A stretch of 54,321 nt of DNA from a virus: the UHGV virus genome UHGV-0135730; one strand, 5' to 3'. Below the pieces are notes generated by a model. The model searched no databases. It had not been told where the DNA came from and saw only the letters and a program-made list of their open reading frames with translations. A program made the position numbers and the translations under genes. This document shows, piece by piece, positions 2,611 to 34,077 of the stretch. The stretch's first letter is position 1. The number at the start of each line of letters is the position of its first letter.

Positions 2611-2862
2611 TCAGAAAACCCCTTTATAATCTGCCGTGTATTTTGCAACCAATTTCCATTCACAATAGTTTTCCATGTCGCGCGGTTGCCAGCCTTTCAT
2701 GCCTACAGCACCACGCACGCCGTGGCGACGATAATTATCGTTATAGTCAGCTACGCACCACGGCTGAAGCACAAACATGTAATTGGCCTCGTTAACCAGG
2801 ATCGCCATCTGCTTTCCTGTTGCCTTATCTTTCGCCCGGAAATAACTTACCCTGATTTTCAT
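2611..2862 (-). CDS. Hypothetical protein
   Basis: 83 aa ORF; start may be a downstream ATG (overlap with upstream gene). Confidence 0.4.
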   Translation of the reverse strand: MKIRVSYFRAKDKATGKQMAILVNEANYMFVLQPWCVADYNDNYRRHGVRGAVGMKGWQPRDMENYCEWKLVAKYTADYKGVF

Positions 2863-3073
2863 TTTGATATACCTCTATCAACATTTCTTCCTCAAGGTTG
2901 GCAGGACGTTTACGGAATACCCCGGCAAAAACCAGATCGTCGAGCAAGTCTTTGCTCTTAAATAGCCATTCCTTCATTATTACCCCATCGTCGCTGCGAT
3001 ATACCACGCTGTTTTTCAGAAAATAAAACGTGTGCGTGTTTGTCTGGAGGTACAGATCTTCGTAAACGTCCAT
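2825..3073 (-). CDS. Hypothetical protein
   Basis: 82 aa ORF in gene train. Confidence 0.4.
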   Translation of the reverse strand: MDVYEDLYLQTNTHTFYFLKNSVVYRSDDGVIMKEWLFKSKDLLDDLVFAGVFRKRPANLEEEMLIEVYQNENQGKLFPGER

Positions 3074-3077
3074 GATG

Positions 3078-3305
3078 TTAACCCTCGACTACTTCCAGCC
3101 CGCGCCCCTTGTCGCCAACGAAGTCCCCCAGGCTGAACGTATACGACCATGCCGGATTAATGTAATGGTCATCAGCGCCAGCGGCTATCAGGTCAGCACC
3201 GTTAATCATGCAAGTGACATTATCACTATGCACAACTTTAACGACCTTACCAACAACCTGTTTCAGTGACGGATAACCGTGATCGTGCAAGAATTTTACT
3301 TTCAC
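3078..3305 (-). CDS. Hypothetical protein
   Basis: 75 aa ORF, tightly spaced. Confidence 0.4.
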   Translation of the reverse strand: MKVKFLHDHGYPSLKQVVGKVVKVVHSDNVTCMINGADLIAAGADDHYINPAWSYTFSLGDFVGDKGRGLEVVEG

Positions 3306-3580
3306 TCTTCTGCCTCCCAGCGCTCAATACTGATTAAAAAGTCCCGGATAGCGTGGCGCTCGTCGCGCGTTGGTTTGCGTTTCCGGTAGATCCTGAAATC
3401 GAACCATTCTTTTTCCTGCTCAAAATCCAGGTCGTAAGCAAGCGCCTCAATGTATCCGCATTCGTGATACCAGTACGCAACGCCAGCACGAACAAAAAAG
3501 CGGGTTTTATCCCGCTTGTGCTCATAGATACGCATATTCACCCCGTTATGCTGTTGTGTAGCTGTCAACCAGTTTTTCAT
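3302..3580 (-). CDS. Hypothetical protein
   Basis: 92 aa ORF, 4-nt overlap with next gene. Confidence 0.4.
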   Translation of the reverse strand: MKNWLTATQQHNGVNMRIYEHKRDKTRFFVRAGVAYWYHECGYIEALAYDLDFEQEKEWFDFRIYRKRKPTRDERHAIRDFLISIERWEAEE

Positions 3581-3776
3581 CTTTCATTCTGGCAAGCTGT
3601 GCGATGTTCATCGTGTAGCCGCCATCAGCGAAAAGCAATTCCGCCGCAGCGCGACGGAAAGCAATATCATCATGGTTACGTGTCCATGTAGCGATCACAA
3701 CGCGTTTCCCGTTAGTGGCGAACATAGACAATTCGTTATCAACAACGTCGATAGCACACCAGATTTTTAGCTCCAT
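3546..3776 (-). CDS. Hypothetical protein
   Basis: 76 aa ORF. Confidence 0.35.
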   Translation of the reverse strand: MELKIWCAIDVVDNELSMFATNGKRVVIATWTRNHDDIAFRRAAAELLFADGGYTMNIAQLARMKDEKLVDSYTTA

Positions 3777-4132
3777 GACTTATCCCCGTAGATCTTGAAT
3801 AGTTCGCGCTCTTCCTGGTCTTCAACTATCCCTATATGCAGATCACGCAGGCGGCGCATTGTGCGGAATCGTGGCCTGAACTCCTGGCTGCGTTTAATGT
3901 ACTTACCGCCAATTGAGTAAATGTGTCCGTATGAGTACCATCTATTCCCTACCCATATTTCATATTCCTTTCCTTCGTAATTGAATTTTATCGTTAGCTC
4001 TCCGACTTCAACTATTAACCCTTTGTCAATAATGTCGTTAAGCATTTCATCCCATTCTTTTAGAAATGGTTGTTGATAAAAACCAAAAATCGTATTAACA
4101 GCGTGACAGAGATAATCAATGATTATTTGCAT
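3767..4132 (-). CDS. Hypothetical protein (AT-rich)
   Basis: 121 aa ORF. Confidence 0.45.
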   Translation of the reverse strand: MQIIIDYLCHAVNTIFGFYQQPFLKEWDEMLNDIIDKGLIVEVGELTIKFNYEGKEYEIWVGNRWYSYGHIYSIGGKYIKRSQEFRPRFRTMRRLRDLHIGIVEDQEERELFKIYGDKSWS

Positions 4133-6418: not shown

Positions 6419-7020
6419 GCCGCCTTTCTCCTTAAGGCGTCCAATTTAGCCTGATAGACTTTTATGATTTCCTTACATTCTTCTATCGTCCATTTGTGAG
6501 TTTCGTTGTTGTTCTCCAGCGCTACCACCCTGGCGAGGCCAATTTTTCGAATCAGTGCCGGGCGATACCCTCCGATGTTGCCGTCTAGTGTCTGGTTGCA
6601 GTGCCTGCATTGTTTATGGCAATTATCCTCGTTAAAGCGAAGATGTCCGGCGGCGGCTACCGTCCTGTAATGGCCCGCATCCCACCCGCATTGCTCACCG
6701 TAGTAAGTACCGCAAGATATACACGGCAAGCGCGCGTCACGTTCGCGAATATAGGCGTTAAATACATTTTGAACTTGTTTGATCCAATAACTACGCGGAT
6801 TTAACTGCTTCCGCTTCCGGTTGCGCTCTTCCCGCTGGCGGTCGCGGCGTTTCTTCCGCTCCATAGCCTTCATAGCCTTCTCACGGTCGCGGCATAGCTG
6901 ATCAAATTTCAGCTCTTCCAGACACTCATCACTGCACCACGTTTGATTATGGTATTTAGGCTCAAAAAAAACGCCGCAGCATTTGCAACGGCGTTTTATG
7001 GGTTTTTTAGGGTTCTGCAT
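6415..7020 (-). CDS. ninG: NinG (Rap) recombination protein
   Basis: RSYWIKQVQNVFNAYIRERDARLPCISCGT...WDAGHYRTVAAAGHLRFNE..NCHKQC matches lambda NinG; ATG at 7020. Confidence 0.85.
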   Translation of the reverse strand: MQNPKKPIKRRCKCCGVFFEPKYHNQTWCSDECLEELKFDQLCRDREKAMKAMERKKRRDRQREERNRKRKQLNPRSYWIKQVQNVFNAYIRERDARLPCISCGTYYGEQCGWDAGHYRTVAAAGHLRFNEDNCHKQCRHCNQTLDGNIGGYRPALIRKIGLARVVALENNNETHKWTIEECKEIIKVYQAKLDALRRKAA

Positions 7021-25103: not shown

Positions 25104-28100
25104 TTATTCTTCGCTTCCTGTTAACTGCCGGACAAGCGCTTCAAGTTTTGCGATACGCTCATCCATTGCGGCAATGTTGGCGCGTAGGCTGGCGTTTTCC
25201 TCTTCCAGTTCGGTTACGCGGTTATCTGTTTCGCGTGCCACCTGGACAAGTAAACCAGTCACCGCCGCATAGTCAACATTGAGGTAACGAGTTTCCTCGC
25301 GTAGCTCGTTGCCGTCAGTGGTCGGGCCTTGTAACGCTTCACCGTAATGAGTAAATGATCCAACAGCTTCCGGCAGCGCCTCCATGACCTCCTGAGCGAT
25401 AACGCCAGCGTAAGGCAGGCCGTTTTCCTTAAGGGTATAAGTGTACCCGTTCATTTTACGGATTGCTTCGGTAGCGTCACCTATAACCTGAATGTTGTCT
25501 TTAAGATCGCGGTCTGATGTTTGGGTAACTGTTGTGCATGTAATACTACCTCCTACCTGCAACTGGGCAGAACCATCTGAGAGGTATTTAGCCATAAACA
25601 GTGATTTCAATGATGTCTCACTACTGTTTGTATCAGCCGCTATGACTTCATAATACAACGGGACAGATTTATCACCCCACGATACTATTTTGGCGTTCAC
25701 TGTCGATGATGCGGAACACTGATGTTTCATGAAACGTGTGTGCGTGCTATCAAAGACATAATGAACAGTAAAATGATTGTCTCCTGTCCATAAGTTTTTT
25801 GTGTCAAGCGTAGCAAGTTGATGCCAGCCTTTATCAACTCCCGCCTCAAAACTTCTTGCATAGAATGATGAGTTTCGCCCGGCGAACTGGGTGGCATGTG
25901 TACCGCTAAATCCAACATGAAAACCGCCATATGTAACGTTGCTTTCAGGTGCATTAACATTACCCGCAATAGGCTTAAAATTGTTTAAGCTACCTGACTG
26001 CTGCGTGTTCCAGTCAGCGCCAGTTTCTGCAGCGTAACCTTTAGACGATCCTATCGTGCCATTTATAGTTAGCTTCGGCATCGTCATAGATATTTCTTCG
26101 CCGACGGTAATCCCGCTAAACAGACCTACGCGAGCACCACTACAAATATAATGGAGTCCTTCAGTTGTTGCGGAATAAAAACCACAACGCCCCATCCTGA
26201 AGTCAAACATAACCTGTAGGTTTTTATATGAACCTAAAGGATCTGATACACCCCACGGGATGATCGTTTCTGTATCTTTACCACTATTATATACAACCTG
26301 GGCGGTTGGTACTTGTACTGTTACGCCTACAGGCAAGCGCATTTTAACAGGGAATGCCCTTGCTTCAACAAAAACAAAGAGCAAGTTTTCTTTGTCTTTG
26401 CTGGAACTGCAGATAGAATGTAAAGCGATTTCTTTGTCGGTATAGCGATTATAAAAACCGTACCCGGCATCTTTTCTGTCACTCCACCCGCCAGTCCTTA
26501 TATACCCTGAAAAGGTGTTACAGTTCATTGGGTAACTACCAGCGCCAGACGCTGTAACAATATCGACCTGATAGCCAGTCAGGTAAGCGTTGTAATAATT
26601 GGCGTTTATAATTATAGGGTAATACTTCCCATCCTCAACGCCTTCCGGTGCTTCGATTGTCATCAACTCGCCACCGCCTATGGTTGGGATATTGAGATTT
26701 CTCCTTGTCTGTTGAGCGTTCTTAGCTTTGAAAGAGTCGGCTATAAATTCGCCGTTCGCGGTAAGGCTGGCGTATTTGCTCACGCCGCCAGTTCTCAAAT
26801 GCATTGTTAGCTGATCAGGCTCAGTAAGATGCGTTTCTGGATACACAGCACCATAAACACGCTCCGTTCCTGTTGTACCAACCAAAGCGCTAGATAAAAG
26901 ACCACCAGCAACCCACCCGGTAGTTACGTCAGTAGCCCTTTTTAGTGAAACATTAAGGAACTGCGGGCTATTTGAAGACCCGACGCCGAGGTTTGCCCTT
27001 GCTGTCTCTGCATTTGTTGCACCAGTACCACCCTGAGCAACGGCGAGCGGGATCCATTTTTTCTGCGTGTCGCTGTAACAACCCCATAATGAGGCTGATA
27101 AACCCATGCGCATAGAGTTGTCAGCGTTATATATCCACGTCTCGCTTCCCCACTCATCAACCCTTTCTGTTACTACAATTTTCTTCCATGCGCTCCAACC
27201 TTCCCCGTTAAACACCCTTCTATAGCTGGTTTTTACATCGTTAAACACATAATAGGTCTGGATGCACCCCTTAGCGTCACCCGCGCCAGTTTTTTGCACT
27301 AACAGTGATCCCGCAACCTGTTTAGGGTAATTTAACTCAGGTTTTGCGTTTGCTGATAAATATTGATGATAAAAGCCTGCCGAGTCTCCTTTTAAATCAT
27401 CAAGATTCTGAGTCGAACTAAGGGAAGATTTTGCATCATGCATAACCATTAGGTTATTTCTGGCTTCTGCTGCGTTTCCTGCACCAGTACCGCCATACAT
27501 AATGCCTAACTTAATTGCCCCAGTTGTTGAATAAGCACCCCACCCAGTGTTATTAACGAAGATATAATTTTTCTTGTCCCCGTCCCATAACTGACTTTCT
27601 TTTGAGGAACCAGCACTTTGAAGTAAGCGATCCACTTCATCCTTGCGTGCGTGGCGTGTCCAGTTCGCGCCTGATGATGCAATCCATGTATAGGTATAAA
27701 GTGATCGCGTAGACCAGCCGACAAAGACGCCTGTATATGAAGGCGTTGTGTCTCGTTGACAGATAAATCCACTCAAAAATGATTCACCAGCCGCCACGGA
27801 AGGAAAACCCTTAGTCGTTTCCTTTATGCGCAAAAATCCAACGTAAGAAGACGGATTGCCTGATATATCGGTGCAATCTCGCGGCTCTGGCCCCAAGCCA
27901 ATATTGCTGCCATCTATTGCGCTGGATATTTCATCTTCCTTTTCCTGATAAAAACGAAGCGTTTCCGCTACATCCTGAGCAAGCCCATCAACTGAGATCG
28001 AGTCAGAAAGCAGAATGCTAAATTTTGTCCCGGCAGCGATTGCAGGGCTAGCCGCTGGCGTTACTGACAGTTCAGTACCGCTCTTGATTTCAGTAATGGT

Positions 28101-28235
28101 AAAGATCTGGATAGGGTTGCTAATAGCAATAAGCGTGCAACCTACACGAATGAGAGAAAGCGGCGCGGAGAAGTTTGTGCCCGTGCCTTTAACAGTGTTG
28201 CCGTTGATGGCAATTGTTCCAGTTGTGTAAATCAT
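25104..28235 (-). CDS. Side tail fibre with C-terminal intramolecular chaperone (S74-like) domain
   Basis: 1043 aa; C-terminal TSDRDLKDNIQVIGDATEAIRKMNGYTY...coiled coil resembles self-cleaving chaperone domains of tail fibres/tailspikes. Confidence 0.75.
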   Translation of the reverse strand: MIYTTGTIAINGNTVKGTGTNFSAPLSLIRVGCTLIAISNPIQIFTITEIKSGTELSVTPAASPAIAAGTKFSILLSDSISVDGLAQDVAETLRFYQEKEDEISSAIDGSNIGLGPEPRDCTDISGNPSSYVGFLRIKETTKGFPSVAAGESFLSGFICQRDTTPSYTGVFVGWSTRSLYTYTWIASSGANWTRHARKDEVDRLLQSAGSSKESQLWDGDKKNYIFVNNTGWGAYSTTGAIKLGIMYGGTGAGNAAEARNNLMVMHDAKSSLSSTQNLDDLKGDSAGFYHQYLSANAKPELNYPKQVAGSLLVQKTGAGDAKGCIQTYYVFNDVKTSYRRVFNGEGWSAWKKIVVTERVDEWGSETWIYNADNSMRMGLSASLWGCYSDTQKKWIPLAVAQGGTGATNAETARANLGVGSSNSPQFLNVSLKRATDVTTGWVAGGLLSSALVGTTGTERVYGAVYPETHLTEPDQLTMHLRTGGVSKYASLTANGEFIADSFKAKNAQQTRRNLNIPTIGGGELMTIEAPEGVEDGKYYPIIINANYYNAYLTGYQVDIVTASGAGSYPMNCNTFSGYIRTGGWSDRKDAGYGFYNRYTDKEIALHSICSSSKDKENLLFVFVEARAFPVKMRLPVGVTVQVPTAQVVYNSGKDTETIIPWGVSDPLGSYKNLQVMFDFRMGRCGFYSATTEGLHYICSGARVGLFSGITVGEEISMTMPKLTINGTIGSSKGYAAETGADWNTQQSGSLNNFKPIAGNVNAPESNVTYGGFHVGFSGTHATQFAGRNSSFYARSFEAGVDKGWHQLATLDTKNLWTGDNHFTVHYVFDSTHTRFMKHQCSASSTVNAKIVSWGDKSVPLYYEVIAADTNSSETSLKSLFMAKYLSDGSAQLQVGGSITCTTVTQTSDRDLKDNIQVIGDATEAIRKMNGYTYTLKENGLPYAGVIAQEVMEALPEAVGSFTHYGEALQGPTTDGNELREETRYLNVDYAAVTGLLVQVARETDNRVTELEEENASLRANIAAMDERIAKLEALVRQLTGSEE

Positions 28236-28412
28236 CGCAATGACTCCATAATGTTAATTAACGGAATAATTCTACCATTTTGTGATCTGTGTTGCATTTT
28301 CTGCTTACACAAAATGTATTTGTTGATTTTTATCAATATACGAAATGTGGTTTTGTCGGATATTTAAGTCACCGGATGAACCGGACGAACCAACAAGAGC
28401 GAGGATTCAAAG

Positions 28413-28661
28413 ATGAAAAACGTATTCAAAGTGGTTTTGTTCGCTGCGGCTGTAGCTCTTACTGGTTGTGCTGTTGACAAAGAGGCTGCATTGCATAACC
28501 TGCCGAACAGCGGAGTGATTCCACAGGATGTTGTCTATGATGGTAGCGGTCATCTTGTCTATGACACTGAAAAGCTACCGTATACTGGGCAATGGTGTCA
28601 TGAACTCGATCACAACATGCGCCGCATCGGTAGCCCGTCAAACTGTGTAGCTAACTACTAA
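28413..28661 (+). CDS. Small lipoprotein (opposite-strand cargo between fibre genes)
   Basis: Signal peptide with lipobox LTGC (MKNVFKVVLFAAAVALTGCA); own terminator. Confidence 0.65.
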   Translation: MKNVFKVVLFAAAVALTGCAVDKEAALHNLPNSGVIPQDVVYDGSGHLVYDTEKLPYTGQWCHELDHNMRRIGSPSNCVANY

Positions 28662-28666
28662 AAGAA

Positions 28667-28694
28667 AACCCCGCGCGAAGCGGGGTTGTTTTTT
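28667..28694. terminator. Bidirectional rho-independent terminator
   Basis: Hairpin CCCCGC-GCGAA-GCGGGG flanked by A-run and T-run. Confidence 0.7.
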
Positions 28695-31600
28695 AACCTG
28701 AGAATGTACCAGAACCGCGCGACACAATGACAGTCGGCGAGTTTATATATGCCCCCTTACTATTTTGAGCGGATACACTAATTATCACTGTAACGCTCCT
28801 GTTAGCTACTGATGCTGCGTGCATAACAAGGCGCTCTTCGCCAGTCATAGAAAGTTGTTTCTGCGAACCGCTGATGTTTATCGTACATCCGCCGAAGCCC
28901 TTAACGTTTGCTATGACACAAACATGTCGGGCGTATGCTGCGTCTGTTGTATCGTAGTACTGAATTGTTTTTTGCAATACGCCATTTTGTAACCTGCTAA
29001 CGTCAGATCCCGTATACATGTTCGCAACGTCACCGATAAATGTCTTCGCTTCCAGTTGTCCTGAGAATTTACCGTTGGTTGCGTACACTGTACCGTTAAA
29101 CACCCCATCATTAGCGTATACCGTGCCCCTTATTGTTGCCTGGTTAAATACTGCTGCACCGTTTTTGTTTATCGCCCAGCCTGTACCGTTTTCCCAGCTG
29201 TAATTACTGGATTGTATTTGCTGAGCTATTTTTGCAGTAGTGATCGATGCGTCTTTAATAAACGCTTCTTTCACATACATTGCACCGTTAGACACATAGA
29301 ATGGCGTTGTATATGTGCCGTTTGCAGCCGTCATCAACACGAAGCGGTCAACAAGGAAGATACACTGCGATTGGACGTTAGTACCGTTGCCAGTCAGCCC
29401 AAGCGACATACCTGTCGCATACTTCATGCCGTTGTTGTCGGTTGCCAGCTTGATGGAATACGTCGCATCGACATTACCTTTGAAGTCGGTTAACGCTTTC
29501 GAAGTAGTCTGTATAGCTGTTGTGTTCCCGTTAACGGTCACTGTTAGCTGATCGATTTTGCTTGATAATGCCTCGTCAGCCGTTGCCATTGTCTGTGACC
29601 ATTCTGTAATACTTGAGTTTACAGAATCGAAAGACGCTGAGATCTGGCCGAATTTTTCCGCGCTTGATGCCTCATGCGTAGAAAGCGCCGTTGATACCTC
29701 AGACACCTTCGAGTTAATCGTACTGGTAAGCGATGAGTTAAGGTTACTTATCGCGTCAGTGCGTGCCTTCGTTTCGTCAGCGACGGCCTTGTCGAGACGG
29801 TTAACGTTGCTTGTCACTTTGCCATCAAGGGTTGAAATTGATGCGTTCACGCCAGTGATGGCTTGTGCTCTGGCGCTGGACTCGTCAGCAATCGCCTGGT
29901 CCAGTCTGCTAACCTCGGATTCAGTGTTGCTTTCGAGGGTGTTAATGCTCGCATTCACTCCACTGATAGCTTCTGTTCTTGCGCTGGTTTCGTTGGCAAT
30001 AGCCTGATCTAAACGTTTAACGCTGGCGTCGGTTTTCTTGTCGAGCGCTGAAATGCTTGCGTTAACGTTGCTCACCGCCTGGCTGCGTGCGTTGGTTTCG
30101 TCAGCGATAGCCTTATCGAGACGTGAAACGCTGGCATCGGTTTTCTTATCAAGATCCGTGATCGATGCTTTTACCACGCCGATTGCTTCGGCTGTAGCTT
30201 TTTTCTCTTCAGCGATAACACTGTCAATACGATCAATCTGCGCGCTTGTTTCCTTGCGACCTTTCTTGTACTGGGCCGTAAGCGTAACACGCGTGTTGGT
30301 TTGAGCGATTGAGTTGTTAATCAGAGCAATAGATGCGTTTTGCAGGCTTGCTTTGGTCTGGCTTATTTCGTCGCTGTTCTTGTCAACGTTATTTTCAACC
30401 TTGCCAAGCTCGGCGCTGATTCCAGATATAGCCTGAGCACGGGCGCTTGATTCGTCAGCAATAGCCTGGTCTAAGCGTTTTACGCTGGCGTTTGTGTTAC
30501 TTTCGAGCGTTGTTAAATCAGCTTTAACCTCTGTTATTGCGTCGCTTCTTGCCTGCGTTTCATCTGCTATTGCTTTATCGAGTCTGGAAACGCTGGCGTC
30601 TGTTTTGCTTTCAAGGTTGCTTATTGATGCTTTCACATCGCTCACAGCCTGGGCGCGGGCGCTGACCTCGTCAGCAATAGACTGGTCAAGGCGTTTAACT
30701 GCCGAATTGGTGTTACCTTCAAGCGTGTCAATACTTGCTTTGACACTACTGATAGCTTCAGTTCTTGCACTGGTTTCGTCTGCTATTGCTTGATCCAGGC
30801 GTTTAACGCTGGCGTCGGTTTTCTTGTCAAGCGCTGAAATGCTTGCGTTAACGTCACTGACTGCCTGTGTGCGGGCGTTCGTTTCGTCTGCAATAGCCTG
30901 ATCAAGTCTATTGACGCTGGCATCGGTTTTCTTGTCGAGATTGCTTATTGATGCGTTCACGCCGTTAATTGCTTCGGCGCGGGCACTGGTTTCGTCAGCT
31001 ACTGCGCGTTCCACGCTGGAGATCTGACCCTTGAGGTTGGAATCCATCGTGTTCATTTCTGCCGTGATGGTTTTCAGAGATTCAGCCGTGGCCTGTTTCT
31101 CATCAGCAATAACGTTGTCAATGCGGTCAATTTCAGCCTTCGTCTCTGTCCTGCCTTTCTTGTACTGTGCAGTGAGAGTAACCCGCGTGTTGGTCTGAGC
31201 AAGGGAGTTGTTGATAAGTGCCAACGACGCGTTTTGCAGGCTTGCTTTTGCTTGCGCCAGTTCACTGCCAACTTTTTCGCTGGATACCTCCAGAGAGTCT
31301 ATTCTTGCCTCATGCTGTCCAATATCGTCGGCGTTTTCCCCAACCTTTTTGTAAAGATCTTCCGTCTCTTTTTTCAGTGTGTCCGTGTCAGCTTTTATGG
31401 CCCCTGTTTCTGTGATTAGGCCGTCCGTATCAGTCCTCAATTCGTCAGTGATGTTTGTCAGGTTGTCAGTGTCAACCCTTAAATCGTCAGTGATGTTTGT
31501 CAGGTTATCAGTTGCAGTTTTGAGGCTGTCAGTAGCGTCTTTAAGGTCATTTGTAGCGCTTTCGATAAGGTCGGCGCGGTTGCCAAGATCTTCAATATCG

Positions 31601-34077
31601 CTAATCATGCCCTTGAACTGCTCTGACCCCATGACGTCCTTCATCACGTAGTCGCTGATTTCGTCAAAGTTTTCAGTCGGTTTACCTGATGCCTCAACGA
31701 AGTCTGACACACCGAAAGCGTTACGCGTGCGCACATAAACGTAATAGGTGTGGCCCGTGTTCATGCCGCCAAAAGTCCATTGGTAGCCGCGCCCGGTGAA
31801 TTGCGCCAGCGTGGTTACTTTTGACGGGTCTGTGATCTGATTCTCACCTGAGTAGTAAAACTCATATGCCGTATCAGTGGTCAGCGTTGTTTTGCTGATC
31901 GGGTAGACTGTTGCCTGGAAGACGCCCGGAATCCAGTTGACTCCAATCGGGGCCGCTGGCGCACCAATAACCAGGTCAACAATACTTTCCGCACCCTTCA
32001 TACCAGTGTCATTACGCCCGCGAATACCAAGCGTGTAGCTGCCAGCGTTGAGGCCATAGAAATCATAACGGTAATTCGTGGTTTCATAAGTTGCCACTAC
32101 ACGCCCATCTGCGTTATATACGCGGATTTCAAAGGTCAGGCGATGCGTTGTTGTCTGTGTTTCCCACGTTGCGCGGCATTGAACCGTCTCAGAACCAACA
32201 TTTAACACCCTCAGGTTTTCGATGTTCGGAACGCGGAAGTGATTAAGCGTGTCGTTGTTTACCTCGAAGATTGCACCTTCATCAACTACAGCCTGTTTAT
32301 GCGGATCGTGCTGTGCAGCCTCAATGGTGTACACGCTGTTATTTTCGGTTTCCGCTACACTGGTAATTCGGCACAGAACCGGTTTTGCAGATTCAGTAGA
32401 CACGGCGAATACGGTTCCGTTGCGGATCCATGCTGGCGCTGCCGCAAGGGTAATATTGTTTCCGTTAACCCCAGTGATCTGATGTTTTTTAAACTTGCCA
32501 TCGCTGTCCAGCAAGCTGATGGTGTCACCAGCCGCCACCAGGTCAGAATCAACCTTGTCTACAGTTATTACTTTCCCGTTATTCGCCACGATGCGACCGC
32601 CTAAACGAGCGCCTGCGCGGTTATTGTCGAGTATCTCGATAATATCCCCTGGGGTGAAGTGAATTGCGTCACGGGCCATTTTAAACGTGAATTTTGAGGG
32701 TTCGCGTTTTGCTGTTTCTATCAGCCATTTGCCTGCGCGGTACGCCTGCCCGCGTGATGTGCAACCAAAAGCCTCCAACGTGGTTTCGTTGTAACCATCG
32801 CGGGCGATCAGTTCATCATCTGCCACGTATTCTTTTGATTGTTCCCAACCGTTTTCCGGGTCAGTCCATGATACGATCACGGCGTTGTAAGATTCTGCGC
32901 GAGCGATACTTGAACGAGTGAACGCGCCATCAACGACGTTAGCATTCGTGATGGTGGCAATTGGATCCTGAGGCGCATCAATCATCACAGTAAGGCGCTG
33001 CCCGTCCCATAACGCGATACCACGGAACATGCCCGCAATGTTGTCCAGCAAGTCGCGTGCGCTCATTTGCTCAGTGATGTATGCGTTAAGCGTCATGCGT
33101 GGTTCAAGGCCACCGTAACCGTCGTTTACCAACTGGTCGCAGTATTGAGAAAGCGTATACAGTGCGCCGTCATCAACGTCGATGTAACCAGCGTGGCGGG
33201 CAAGCCCGAAGCGTTCATTTTTAACCAGATACCGGAAAAGCCATGCAGGGTTGTTGGTATATGCCTTTTTAAAGCCACCAAGCCATAAACCTGAATATGT
33301 GCGCGTTTCCGGGTCGTAGTTATCAGGCACGTCAACAATCAGACCGCGCATGTGATAGGTACGTGTCGGCGTGTCAGTATACTGATCGTGGTCAATTACC
33401 GCGCCTGCTACAGCGGTGTGAGGATAAGATAAATTATCGTCGATTATCTCGCTGTAACTGCTCCACCTGGTGTCATTGCGAAGTAGATCGCTTTTGCTGT
33501 CTGGCGTTATGCGACGAACGCGGATGTCAAACGGTTTTTCATCCGGTGCCTGGATGATATGCGCTTCCATGTACTCGCCGCTTTGCTTACCAGGGCCAAT
33601 GGTAATGCCTTTAACAATTGACCATGTTGTTGATGATGAAGGCTTAACGTCAACAGCCAACGTAACAGATGTGTTGTATTGATTGCCTTTATCATCTGAC
33701 TGAACCAGAGAATCGACACCAAGATTCAGCCTTACGCGGTTAACGTTTGGATCTGAAACGGTTCGGATTATTGGTGTATCGTAAGTCACTTTTGCGTTAA
33801 CAATAACGGTTGATTCAATGGCGTTGAATCCGTTGATTGGTGACTGGTCTGCCGTACCATTACGCCACGCCACGCTGACGCCGGGGACTGATGTATTACC
33901 GTTGGCGTCAGTGATTGGGCTGTCATTAAGCATTACGCTGTTTAATGGCGCTTTCTGGTTTACAGGTCCATAGATTGGGCCCTCGCTGAGAATGTCCAAA
34001 ACGCGATAGAACTGTTTATGGAACAGGTTATCGTTTAATAGTGTTGGTGTTTTGGCTTTGCCGCCGCCGCTACTCAT
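28693..34077 (-). CDS. Central tail fibre / host-specificity protein (lambda J-like) with inserted coiled-coil repeat region
   Basis: 1794 aa; N-terminus MSSGGGKAKTPTLLNDNLFHKQFYRVLDILSEGPIYGPV parallels lambda J; central 36-aa tandem repeats; J-like C-terminal domain. Confidence 0.8.
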   Translation of the reverse strand: MSSGGGKAKTPTLLNDNLFHKQFYRVLDILSEGPIYGPVNQKAPLNSVMLNDSPITDANGNTSVPGVSVAWRNGTADQSPINGFNAIESTVIVNAKVTYDTPIIRTVSDPNVNRVRLNLGVDSLVQSDDKGNQYNTSVTLAVDVKPSSSTTWSIVKGITIGPGKQSGEYMEAHIIQAPDEKPFDIRVRRITPDSKSDLLRNDTRWSSYSEIIDDNLSYPHTAVAGAVIDHDQYTDTPTRTYHMRGLIVDVPDNYDPETRTYSGLWLGGFKKAYTNNPAWLFRYLVKNERFGLARHAGYIDVDDGALYTLSQYCDQLVNDGYGGLEPRMTLNAYITEQMSARDLLDNIAGMFRGIALWDGQRLTVMIDAPQDPIATITNANVVDGAFTRSSIARAESYNAVIVSWTDPENGWEQSKEYVADDELIARDGYNETTLEAFGCTSRGQAYRAGKWLIETAKREPSKFTFKMARDAIHFTPGDIIEILDNNRAGARLGGRIVANNGKVITVDKVDSDLVAAGDTISLLDSDGKFKKHQITGVNGNNITLAAAPAWIRNGTVFAVSTESAKPVLCRITSVAETENNSVYTIEAAQHDPHKQAVVDEGAIFEVNNDTLNHFRVPNIENLRVLNVGSETVQCRATWETQTTTHRLTFEIRVYNADGRVVATYETTNYRYDFYGLNAGSYTLGIRGRNDTGMKGAESIVDLVIGAPAAPIGVNWIPGVFQATVYPISKTTLTTDTAYEFYYSGENQITDPSKVTTLAQFTGRGYQWTFGGMNTGHTYYVYVRTRNAFGVSDFVEASGKPTENFDEISDYVMKDVMGSEQFKGMISDIEDLGNRADLIESATNDLKDATDSLKTATDNLTNITDDLRVDTDNLTNITDELRTDTDGLITETGAIKADTDTLKKETEDLYKKVGENADDIGQHEARIDSLEVSSEKVGSELAQAKASLQNASLALINNSLAQTNTRVTLTAQYKKGRTETKAEIDRIDNVIADEKQATAESLKTITAEMNTMDSNLKGQISSVERAVADETSARAEAINGVNASISNLDKKTDASVNRLDQAIADETNARTQAVSDVNASISALDKKTDASVKRLDQAIADETSARTEAISSVKASIDTLEGNTNSAVKRLDQSIADEVSARAQAVSDVKASISNLESKTDASVSRLDKAIADETQARSDAITEVKADLTTLESNTNASVKRLDQAIADESSARAQAISGISAELGKVENNVDKNSDEISQTKASLQNASIALINNSIAQTNTRVTLTAQYKKGRKETSAQIDRIDSVIAEEKKATAEAIGVVKASITDLDKKTDASVSRLDKAIADETNARSQAVSNVNASISALDKKTDASVKRLDQAIANETSARTEAISGVNASINTLESNTESEVSRLDQAIADESSARAQAITGVNASISTLDGKVTSNVNRLDKAVADETKARTDAISNLNSSLTSTINSKVSEVSTALSTHEASSAEKFGQISASFDSVNSSITEWSQTMATADEALSSKIDQLTVTVNGNTTAIQTTSKALTDFKGNVDATYSIKLATDNNGMKYATGMSLGLTGNGTNVQSQCIFLVDRFVLMTAANGTYTTPFYVSNGAMYVKEAFIKDASITTAKIAQQIQSSNYSWENGTGWAINKNGAAVFNQATIRGTVYANDGVFNGTVYATNGKFSGQLEAKTFIGDVANMYTGSDVSRLQNGVLQKTIQYYDTTDAAYARHVCVIANVKGFGGCTINISGSQKQLSMTGEERLVMHAASVANRSVTVIISVSAQNSKGAYINSPTVIVSRGSGTFSG
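29560..31560. repeat. In-frame tandem repeats within J-like gene (about 108-bp units plus a higher-order duplication)
   Basis: Repeated units encoding ...KKTDASVKRLDQAIADETSARTEAISGVNASI...; duplicated block encoding LTAQYKKGR... at about 30260 and 31160. Confidence 0.75.

Follow-up and report, generated by a model that had tools for sequence, protein, structure and literature searches.

The window analysed here, a 54,321-nucleotide stretch of viral DNA (UHGV virus genome UHGV-0135730), carries a small gene, lpp, in reverse orientation between two tail genes. This arrangement raises the question of what the product of lpp does and whether it is linked to the receptor that the neighbouring tail protein recognizes. 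An initial annotation had proposed that lpp encoded an exclusion factor that masked the receptor used by the phage.

The phage and its tail locus

The entire window was approximately 90% identical to phages of the mEpimmI group, namely mEp010, mEp554, mEp044, mEp013, mEp021, and mEp515. Because this alignment extended over the whole window, the sequence identifies it as the complete genome of a temperate, non-lambdoid coliphage of the mEpimmI type. The lpp gene (28413..28661, plus strand) was flanked on one side by a gene for a J-like tail-tip or host-specificity protein of 1794 residues (28693..34077, minus strand). This protein matched the Pfam families FNIII-A_GpJ, Ig_J, Ig_J_second, Phage-tail_3, and Phage_Tail_Tip, the last covering residues 1521-1658. 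On the other side was the gene for a lateral tail-fibre protein of 1043 residues (25104..28235, minus strand), which ended in a Peptidase_S74 intramolecular-chaperone domain (PF13884, 2.8e-14). The open reading frames and the Pfam matches of both neighbours confirmed the placement given in the initial annotation, between a J-like gene and a side tail fibre and on the opposite strand; lpp is convergent with J and divergent from the tail-fibre gene.

The J protein of the window was longer than that of mEp010 (1794 versus 1707 residues). Its residues 900-1350, approximately (about 30000-31400, minus strand), contained long imperfect repeats of the form LDKKTDASVxRLDQAIADETxAR..., with a weak match to an SF-assemblin coiled coil; that this part of J contains repeats whose length varies has been mentioned previously (PMC11893012). 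The tail fibre also differed from that of mEp010, and the megablast match started at about 27940, leaving most of the fibre gene unmatched. The lpp locus was further present in chromosomal prophages of 22 of the 5426 complete E. coli genomes, where the gene is labelled 'hypothetical protein'.

Sequence features of the gene and its product

The ATG at 28413 is the first start codon past an in-frame TGA (28377-28379), and a Shine-Dalgarno sequence, GAGGA (28401..28405, plus strand), was read 7 nt 5' of it. The whole 82-residue translation of 28413..28661 is MKNVFKVVLFAAAVALTGCAVDKEAALHNLPNSGVIPQDVVYDGSGHLVYDTEKLPYTGQWCHELDHNMRRIGSPSNCVANY. It starts with MKNVFKVVLFAAAVALTGC, followed by AVDK.... 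The signal peptide (residues 1-19; 28413..28469, plus strand) consisted of the n-region MKNVFK, the h-region VVLFAAAVA, and the lipobox LTGC (L16-T-G-C19), which matched the pattern [LVI][ASTVI][GAS]C. The 82-residue protein with an LTGC lipobox described initially was thus borne out, and the mature lipoprotein was predicted to comprise 64 residues from Cys19. The +2-residue rule for Lol sorting is established. Since the +2 residue is Ala and the Lol-avoidance Asp is absent, the predicted destination of the lipoprotein is the outer membrane. The lipobox and the lack of Asp at +2 also mark the protein as a predicted lipoprotein substrate of Lgt and LspA, with putative lipidation. Structure prediction with AlphaFold2 gave models that were too poor for use, whether the full-length alignment (pLDDT 55) or the mature-only alignment (pLDDT 54) was supplied. 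A Foldseek search of the PDB with the mature-only model found no match at E <= 0.001, and the model was too poor for this result to be informative.

The gap between lpp and J measured 31 bp and contained a single hairpin (28667..28687) with a T-run on each strand. The terminator scan scored it on both strands as a bidirectional intrinsic terminator common to the two convergent genes. RNA folding yielded -19.9 kcal/mol with z = -5.2, and none of 200 shuffles was as stable; the counterpart of this hairpin in mEp010 is annotated as terminator T18. The terminator that had been described as the gene's own was therefore found, whereas a promoter of its own was not, as the sigma-70 consensus scan of 27900-29000 detected no promoter upstream of lpp. 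Hexamers chosen by eye as candidates for this promoter were weak and hence are not claimed. The 177-bp gap between the divergent tail-fibre and lpp genes (28236..28412) was also present in conserved form in mEp010 and mEp013. The promoter of lpp presumably lies there, and one for the tail fibre may be located on the opposite strand. In the Seuratvirus homologues described below, a near-consensus sigma-70 site, TTGACT-N17-TATATT, was found directly upstream of the lipoprotein gene (2661-2743, 2626-2709, and 6844-6925 of the respective locus pieces). The upstream region of the mEp-type lpp was unrelated to the Seuratvirus one and did not contain this site.

Two further observations were made in the 177-bp gap. 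The element TGGTAGAAT at 28269-28277 (minus strand), roughly 35 nt 5' of the start codon of the tail-fibre gene (ATG, 28235), resembles an extended -10; it was seen by eye alone and was unreported by the consensus scan. If it is real, the fibre gene could be transcribed without read-through over the J terminator and antisense to lpp. In addition, an ORF of about 38 codons (28251-28367, plus strand) upstream of lpp is the counterpart of mEp010_117, which is annotated as a 'hypothetical protein'; it has the appearance of an overcall by the gene finder inside the promoter and 5' region.

Homologues and purifying selection

The protein matched PHROG 12984, 'lipoprotein', over residues 7-82 (1e-26). 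The family was tiny, with 25 clusters at 90% identity among 5.8 billion proteins. A profile search of 1.84 billion representatives (50% identity) recovered three small clusters of true homologues, which indicated no remote link to other families of SE lipoproteins; two giant repetitive proteins returned by the same search were probably spurious. Searches of Pfam and NCBIfam found no family match, only signal-peptide noise, and searches of PDB chains with the single sequence and with the profile gave no match at E <= 10.

In mEp010, mEp013, CSP1C, and the Seuratvirus phages CAjan (gp19) and KurtStettler (bas22_0021), a homologue was flanked by the J and lateral tail-fibre genes and encoded on the strand opposite to them, the same position and orientation as in the window. 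Homologues were also detected by tblastn in Seurat and slur01, and likewise in the Dhillonvirus phages EP23 and PNS1; PHROG 12984 takes in the Seuratvirus and Dhillonvirus proteins. KurtStettler (Bas22) has been found experimentally to depend on LamB, and van den Berg et al. (2022, PMC9586334) have stated that LamB-targeting BASEL phages likely carry SE lipoproteins 3' of gpJ. Over the C-terminal 52 residues, the homologues of virulent phages were 70-77% identical to the protein of the window and kept all motifs and cysteines.

In an alignment of 23 members, Cys19 was invariant, and every member had A, G, or S at the +2 position, where D never occurred. Also invariant or nearly so were the motifs PNSGVxP, DTEKLPxTGQWC, and RIGSPSNC as well as two further cysteines, Cys62 and Cys78, between which a disulfide is probable. 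Compared with mEp013, the last 52 codons showed seven synonymous and no non-synonymous differences, and dN/dS against the Seuratvirus homologues was 0.12-0.17. The reading frame was kept in three phage lineages. These results demonstrated that the lipoprotein is under purifying selection and that the ORF is a real gene.

Identity with Lpp010 and the published exclusion

A tblastn search of phage records showed that the lipoprotein is 100% identical to gp116 of mEp010 (WWQ70279.1), known as Lpp010. The identity was 98.8% with mEp013, 97.6% with mEp044 and mEp554, and 92.7% with MagusPhagus. By homology and by locus, the protein is a member of the mEpimmI Lpp group that Negrete-Mendez et al. (2025, PMC11893012) named 'type-C lipoproteins', and of PHROG 12984.

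In that study, mEp010 gp116 was cloned under Ptac as pLpp010. In spot assays, its expression excluded mEp010, mEp044, mEp554, and lambda, all of which depend on LamB, and mEp013 escaped; mEp021 and mEp515 were not reported as excluded (PMC11893012). A lamB knock-out abolished infection by mEp010, mEp013, mEp044, and mEp554. Lpp021, expressed from the same vector, had a different spectrum, and exclusion of LamB-dependent phages was not reported for it. All these data were obtained with plasmid (Ptac) expression, and the readout was plating (PMC11893012).

The published results supported the proposal that the lipoprotein causes exclusion and that this exclusion is linked to the receptor which the neighbouring J protein uses. 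The test suggested in the initial annotation, namely to express the lipoprotein and plate phages, is in print for the identical protein with the predicted result; the idea was right, and it is already known and not new. The receptor concerned is LamB, not FhuA. That the receptor is masked is something we still infer by analogy. The gene, still called 'hypothetical protein' in GenBank and RefSeq, can now be given a correct functional label, and lpp and the J-tip allele, taken together, provide a genomic marker from which LamB is predicted to be the phage's receptor.

Association of the lipoprotein with the J tip

Past the Phage_Tail_Tip domain, the C-terminal tip of J comprises residues 1659-1794 (28696..29103, minus strand). 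The last 130 residues, approximately, were homologous among the window, mEp010, mEp013, KurtStettler/Bas22, CSP1C, and HK97, and distal GpJ domains have been associated with LamB targeting (2026 preprint). Presumably it is this tip that binds LamB and to which the lipoprotein is matched. Across its last 132 residues, the identity was 70% with mEp010, 74% with mEp013, and 74% with CSP1C. The window thus carries a distinct tip allele, although its lipoprotein does not differ from the mEp010 one; the J tip is diversifying much faster than the exclusion protein.

The DNA similarity to CSP1 (79%) was limited to 28538-29173, that is, to the 3' part of lpp, the terminator, and the 3' end of J, as expected of a cassette that is swapped as a unit. 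In mEp021 and mEp515, the similarity to this J ended after residue 159 of the last 300, and the same locus held an unrelated lipoprotein and a separate protein of 311 residues. A different J tip was thus accompanied by an unrelated lipoprotein, indicating that the tip and the lipoprotein co-vary. These patterns probably mean that lpp and the J tip form one cassette matched to a common receptor and move horizontally together.

The J tip of HK97 was 93% identical to that of KurtStettler over the last 112 residues, and the 208 bp that separate J from stf in HK97 (3400-3608 of the locus piece) contain no annotated gene. This tip type therefore also occurs without an annotated exclusion gene.

Proposed mechanism and alternatives

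Taken together, we consider it probable that the protein is a small outer-membrane lipoprotein that serves as a superinfection-exclusion (lytic-conversion) factor against phages with the maltoporin LamB as their terminal receptor, acts via LamB, and forms a cassette with the J tip. As to how it acts, we favour, with somewhat better than even confidence, a periplasmic binding to LamB that changes the surface seen by the J tip. According to this mechanism, the prolipoprotein would be exported, lipidated at Cys19, and then cleaved by LspA, and the Lol system, given Ala at +2, would insert it into the outer membrane on the periplasmic side. By analogy with the Llp-FhuA and Rtp45-LptDE pairs, the mature lipoprotein, with its Cys62-Cys78 disulfide, would then attach to LamB at the periplasmic rim. 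The surface needed by J-type tips would be altered or occluded, and LamB would not be lost, so that certain tip alleles, for example the mEp013 one, could still use it.

Two published observations bear on the target. The C-terminal domain of lambda J has little or no homology to this tip type (preprint), and lambda is nevertheless excluded, which argues that the target is the host receptor rather than a phage protein. In addition, mEp013 needs LamB and yet plates, indicating that LamB is not simply masked; it would be altered rather than removed or fully covered. Periplasmic action has precedents among SE lipoproteins: Llp binds the periplasmic face of FhuA (PMC9586334), and Rtp45 docks on LptDE at the periplasmic outer-membrane interface and moves extracellular loops 4 and 5 out of place. 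As PMC9586334 explicitly noted, LamB lacks a plug and is not known to be allosteric. How a lipoprotein of 64 residues guards a plain porin is thus a question already in the literature (PMC9586334), to which the window adds no new evidence. The reason why one LamB-dependent relative, mEp013, escapes is of interest for work on phage receptors and phage-resistant strains.

It is possible, though we lean against it, that LamB, a trimeric porin, is disabled by a route unlike both the plug-mediated reverse allostery of Llp-FhuA and the action of Rtp45 on LptDE. Possible routes would be an entry into the periplasmic channel mouth of LamB or a remodelling of its extracellular loops. The block would then be selective, in that the tip of mEp013, and possibly the divergent tip of the window, would still infect. 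If this is true, a conserved exclusion protein and rapidly diversifying J tips would be engaged in an arms race, as illustrated by an identical lipoprotein beside tips that are about 70% identical.

The binding of phages to LamB might instead be left intact, with the block falling after adsorption on DNA ejection or on the passage through the periplasm or the inner membrane, as with injection-blocking Sie proteins. The published work lists interference with DNA ejection among the possible modes and has plating as its sole readout (PMC11893012), and mEp013 uses LamB and infects nonetheless, all of which would agree with such a block. We nonetheless consider it unlikely for several reasons. The predicted sorting to the outer membrane, with Ala at +2 and Asp never found there in the family, speaks against it, as does the spectrum of excluded phages, which tracks the outer-membrane receptor. 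Moreover, lpp co-varies with the J tip and not with the tape-measure or ejection genes, and the solved analogues, Llp and Rtp45, target the receptor.

The periplasmic side, as preferred here, is also questioned by the idea of a surface-exposed lipoprotein that is flipped to the outer leaflet and masks the extracellular loops of LamB from outside. Such an exposure was floated in PMC9586334 for SE lipoproteins of receptors that are not TonB-dependent. The speculation originated from Rtp45, which proved to bind at the periplasmic interface, and the sequence of the lipoprotein contained no recognizable feature of surface export; we therefore regard this reading as quite improbable.

Still less probable is an indirect effect, in which the over-expression of a foreign lipoprotein causes envelope stress and lowers LamB, making the exclusion an artefact of Ptac. 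The published data do all come from plasmid expression. However, the strictly LamB-dependent mEp013 plated on the same Lpp010-expressing cells, in which enough functional LamB must therefore be left, and the control Lpp021 in the same vector gave another spectrum. Furthermore, three phage lineages have kept the gene linked to J tips of the LamB type, which points to a selected, specific function. Finally, the notion that the ORF is a chance reading frame opposite the tail genes, which might be suggested by the missing Pfam and NCBIfam family and by the 'hypothetical protein' label in RefSeq and GenBank, can practically be dismissed in view of the purifying selection, the conserved lipobox and motifs, the Shine-Dalgarno site, and the terminator; the exclusion seen with a protein of the same sequence (PMC11893012) has already refuted it.

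Comparison with known exclusion systems

The closest known system is Lpp010 of mEp010, which agreed with the lipoprotein of the window in amino-acid sequence, locus, orientation, terminator, and phage group; the differences lay in the neighbouring J tip, whose allele was another one, and in the tail fibre. The Seuratvirus and Dhillonvirus homologues belong to virulent phages, whereas the phage of the window is temperate. They also differed in the signal peptide and in the N-terminal linker of the mature protein, which read GNGxNTGK in these homologues and AVDKEAALHNL in the window.

The initial annotation had likened the placement of the gene to that of T5 Llp and of the Cor lipoproteins. The likeness held for the position opposite the tail genes and 3' of J, as in T1 Cor, and did not extend to any detected family kinship; on sequence grounds, the lipoprotein is an analogue rather than a member of the Cor family, and probably of the Llp family as well. 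Cor of T1, phi80, N15, and HK022 is likewise a small lipoprotein that excludes phages with the same receptor, and T1 cor lies on the strand opposite the tail genes and ends at a shared terminator 3' of J. Cor differs in acting on FhuA-dependent phages; the exclusion spectrum in print for Lpp010 comprises phages that depend on LamB. A match to PHROG 1119 (Cor) reached only E = 0.25 over residues 1-22, and membership in Cor was rejected, as the hhalign alignment to T1 Cor covered only residues 1-23, the signal peptide.

T5 Llp is also small, has one disulfide, is encoded beside the receptor-binding gene, and guards against phages with the same receptor (PMC9586334). It resides in the periplasm, anchored to the outer membrane (PMC9586334), a location that is predicted from the sequence for the lipoprotein studied here. 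The disulfide of Llp, Cys11-Cys58, ties the termini together (PMC9586334), whereas the cysteines here are at mature positions 44 and 60. The receptor of Llp, FhuA, is a TonB-dependent transporter with a plug through which the reverse allostery operates, whereas LamB is plug-less. A profile search of PDB chains found no sequence similarity to T5 Llp.

A kinship to the type-A lipoprotein of mEp021 was considered and rejected. At the same locus of mEp021 (MH706966; 3135-4288 of the locus piece), gp81 (Lpp021) was 49% identical to Rtp45 and gp80 was 64% identical to Rtp44 (2753-3918 of the Rtp piece). From its position, rtp44 looks like a separate receptor-binding protein of LptD-targeting small siphophages. 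The receptor of mEp021 has been assigned as OmpA, and the block by the ompA knock-out was incomplete (PMC11893012). The sequence relationships suggest that LptD would be the terminal receptor of mEp021 and OmpA an accessory one; LptD is essential, so it was presumably missing from the knock-out panel of PMC11893012.

A homology of the present lipoprotein to the Rtp45-type SE lipoproteins of LptD was rejected as well, because hhalign aligned only residues 1-24, the signal peptide. The two systems differ in their receptor-binding partner: in Rtp, the lipoprotein is co-transcribed with rtp44, the putative separate receptor-binding protein, whereas in the window receptor binding appears to be the task of the J tip itself. 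They share a lipoprotein gene opposite J and a receptor that is not TonB-dependent and that is, in Rtp45, hit from the periplasmic side, as is proposed here for LamB. By this analogy, we regard Rtp45 as the best mechanistic precedent for the lipoprotein of the window.
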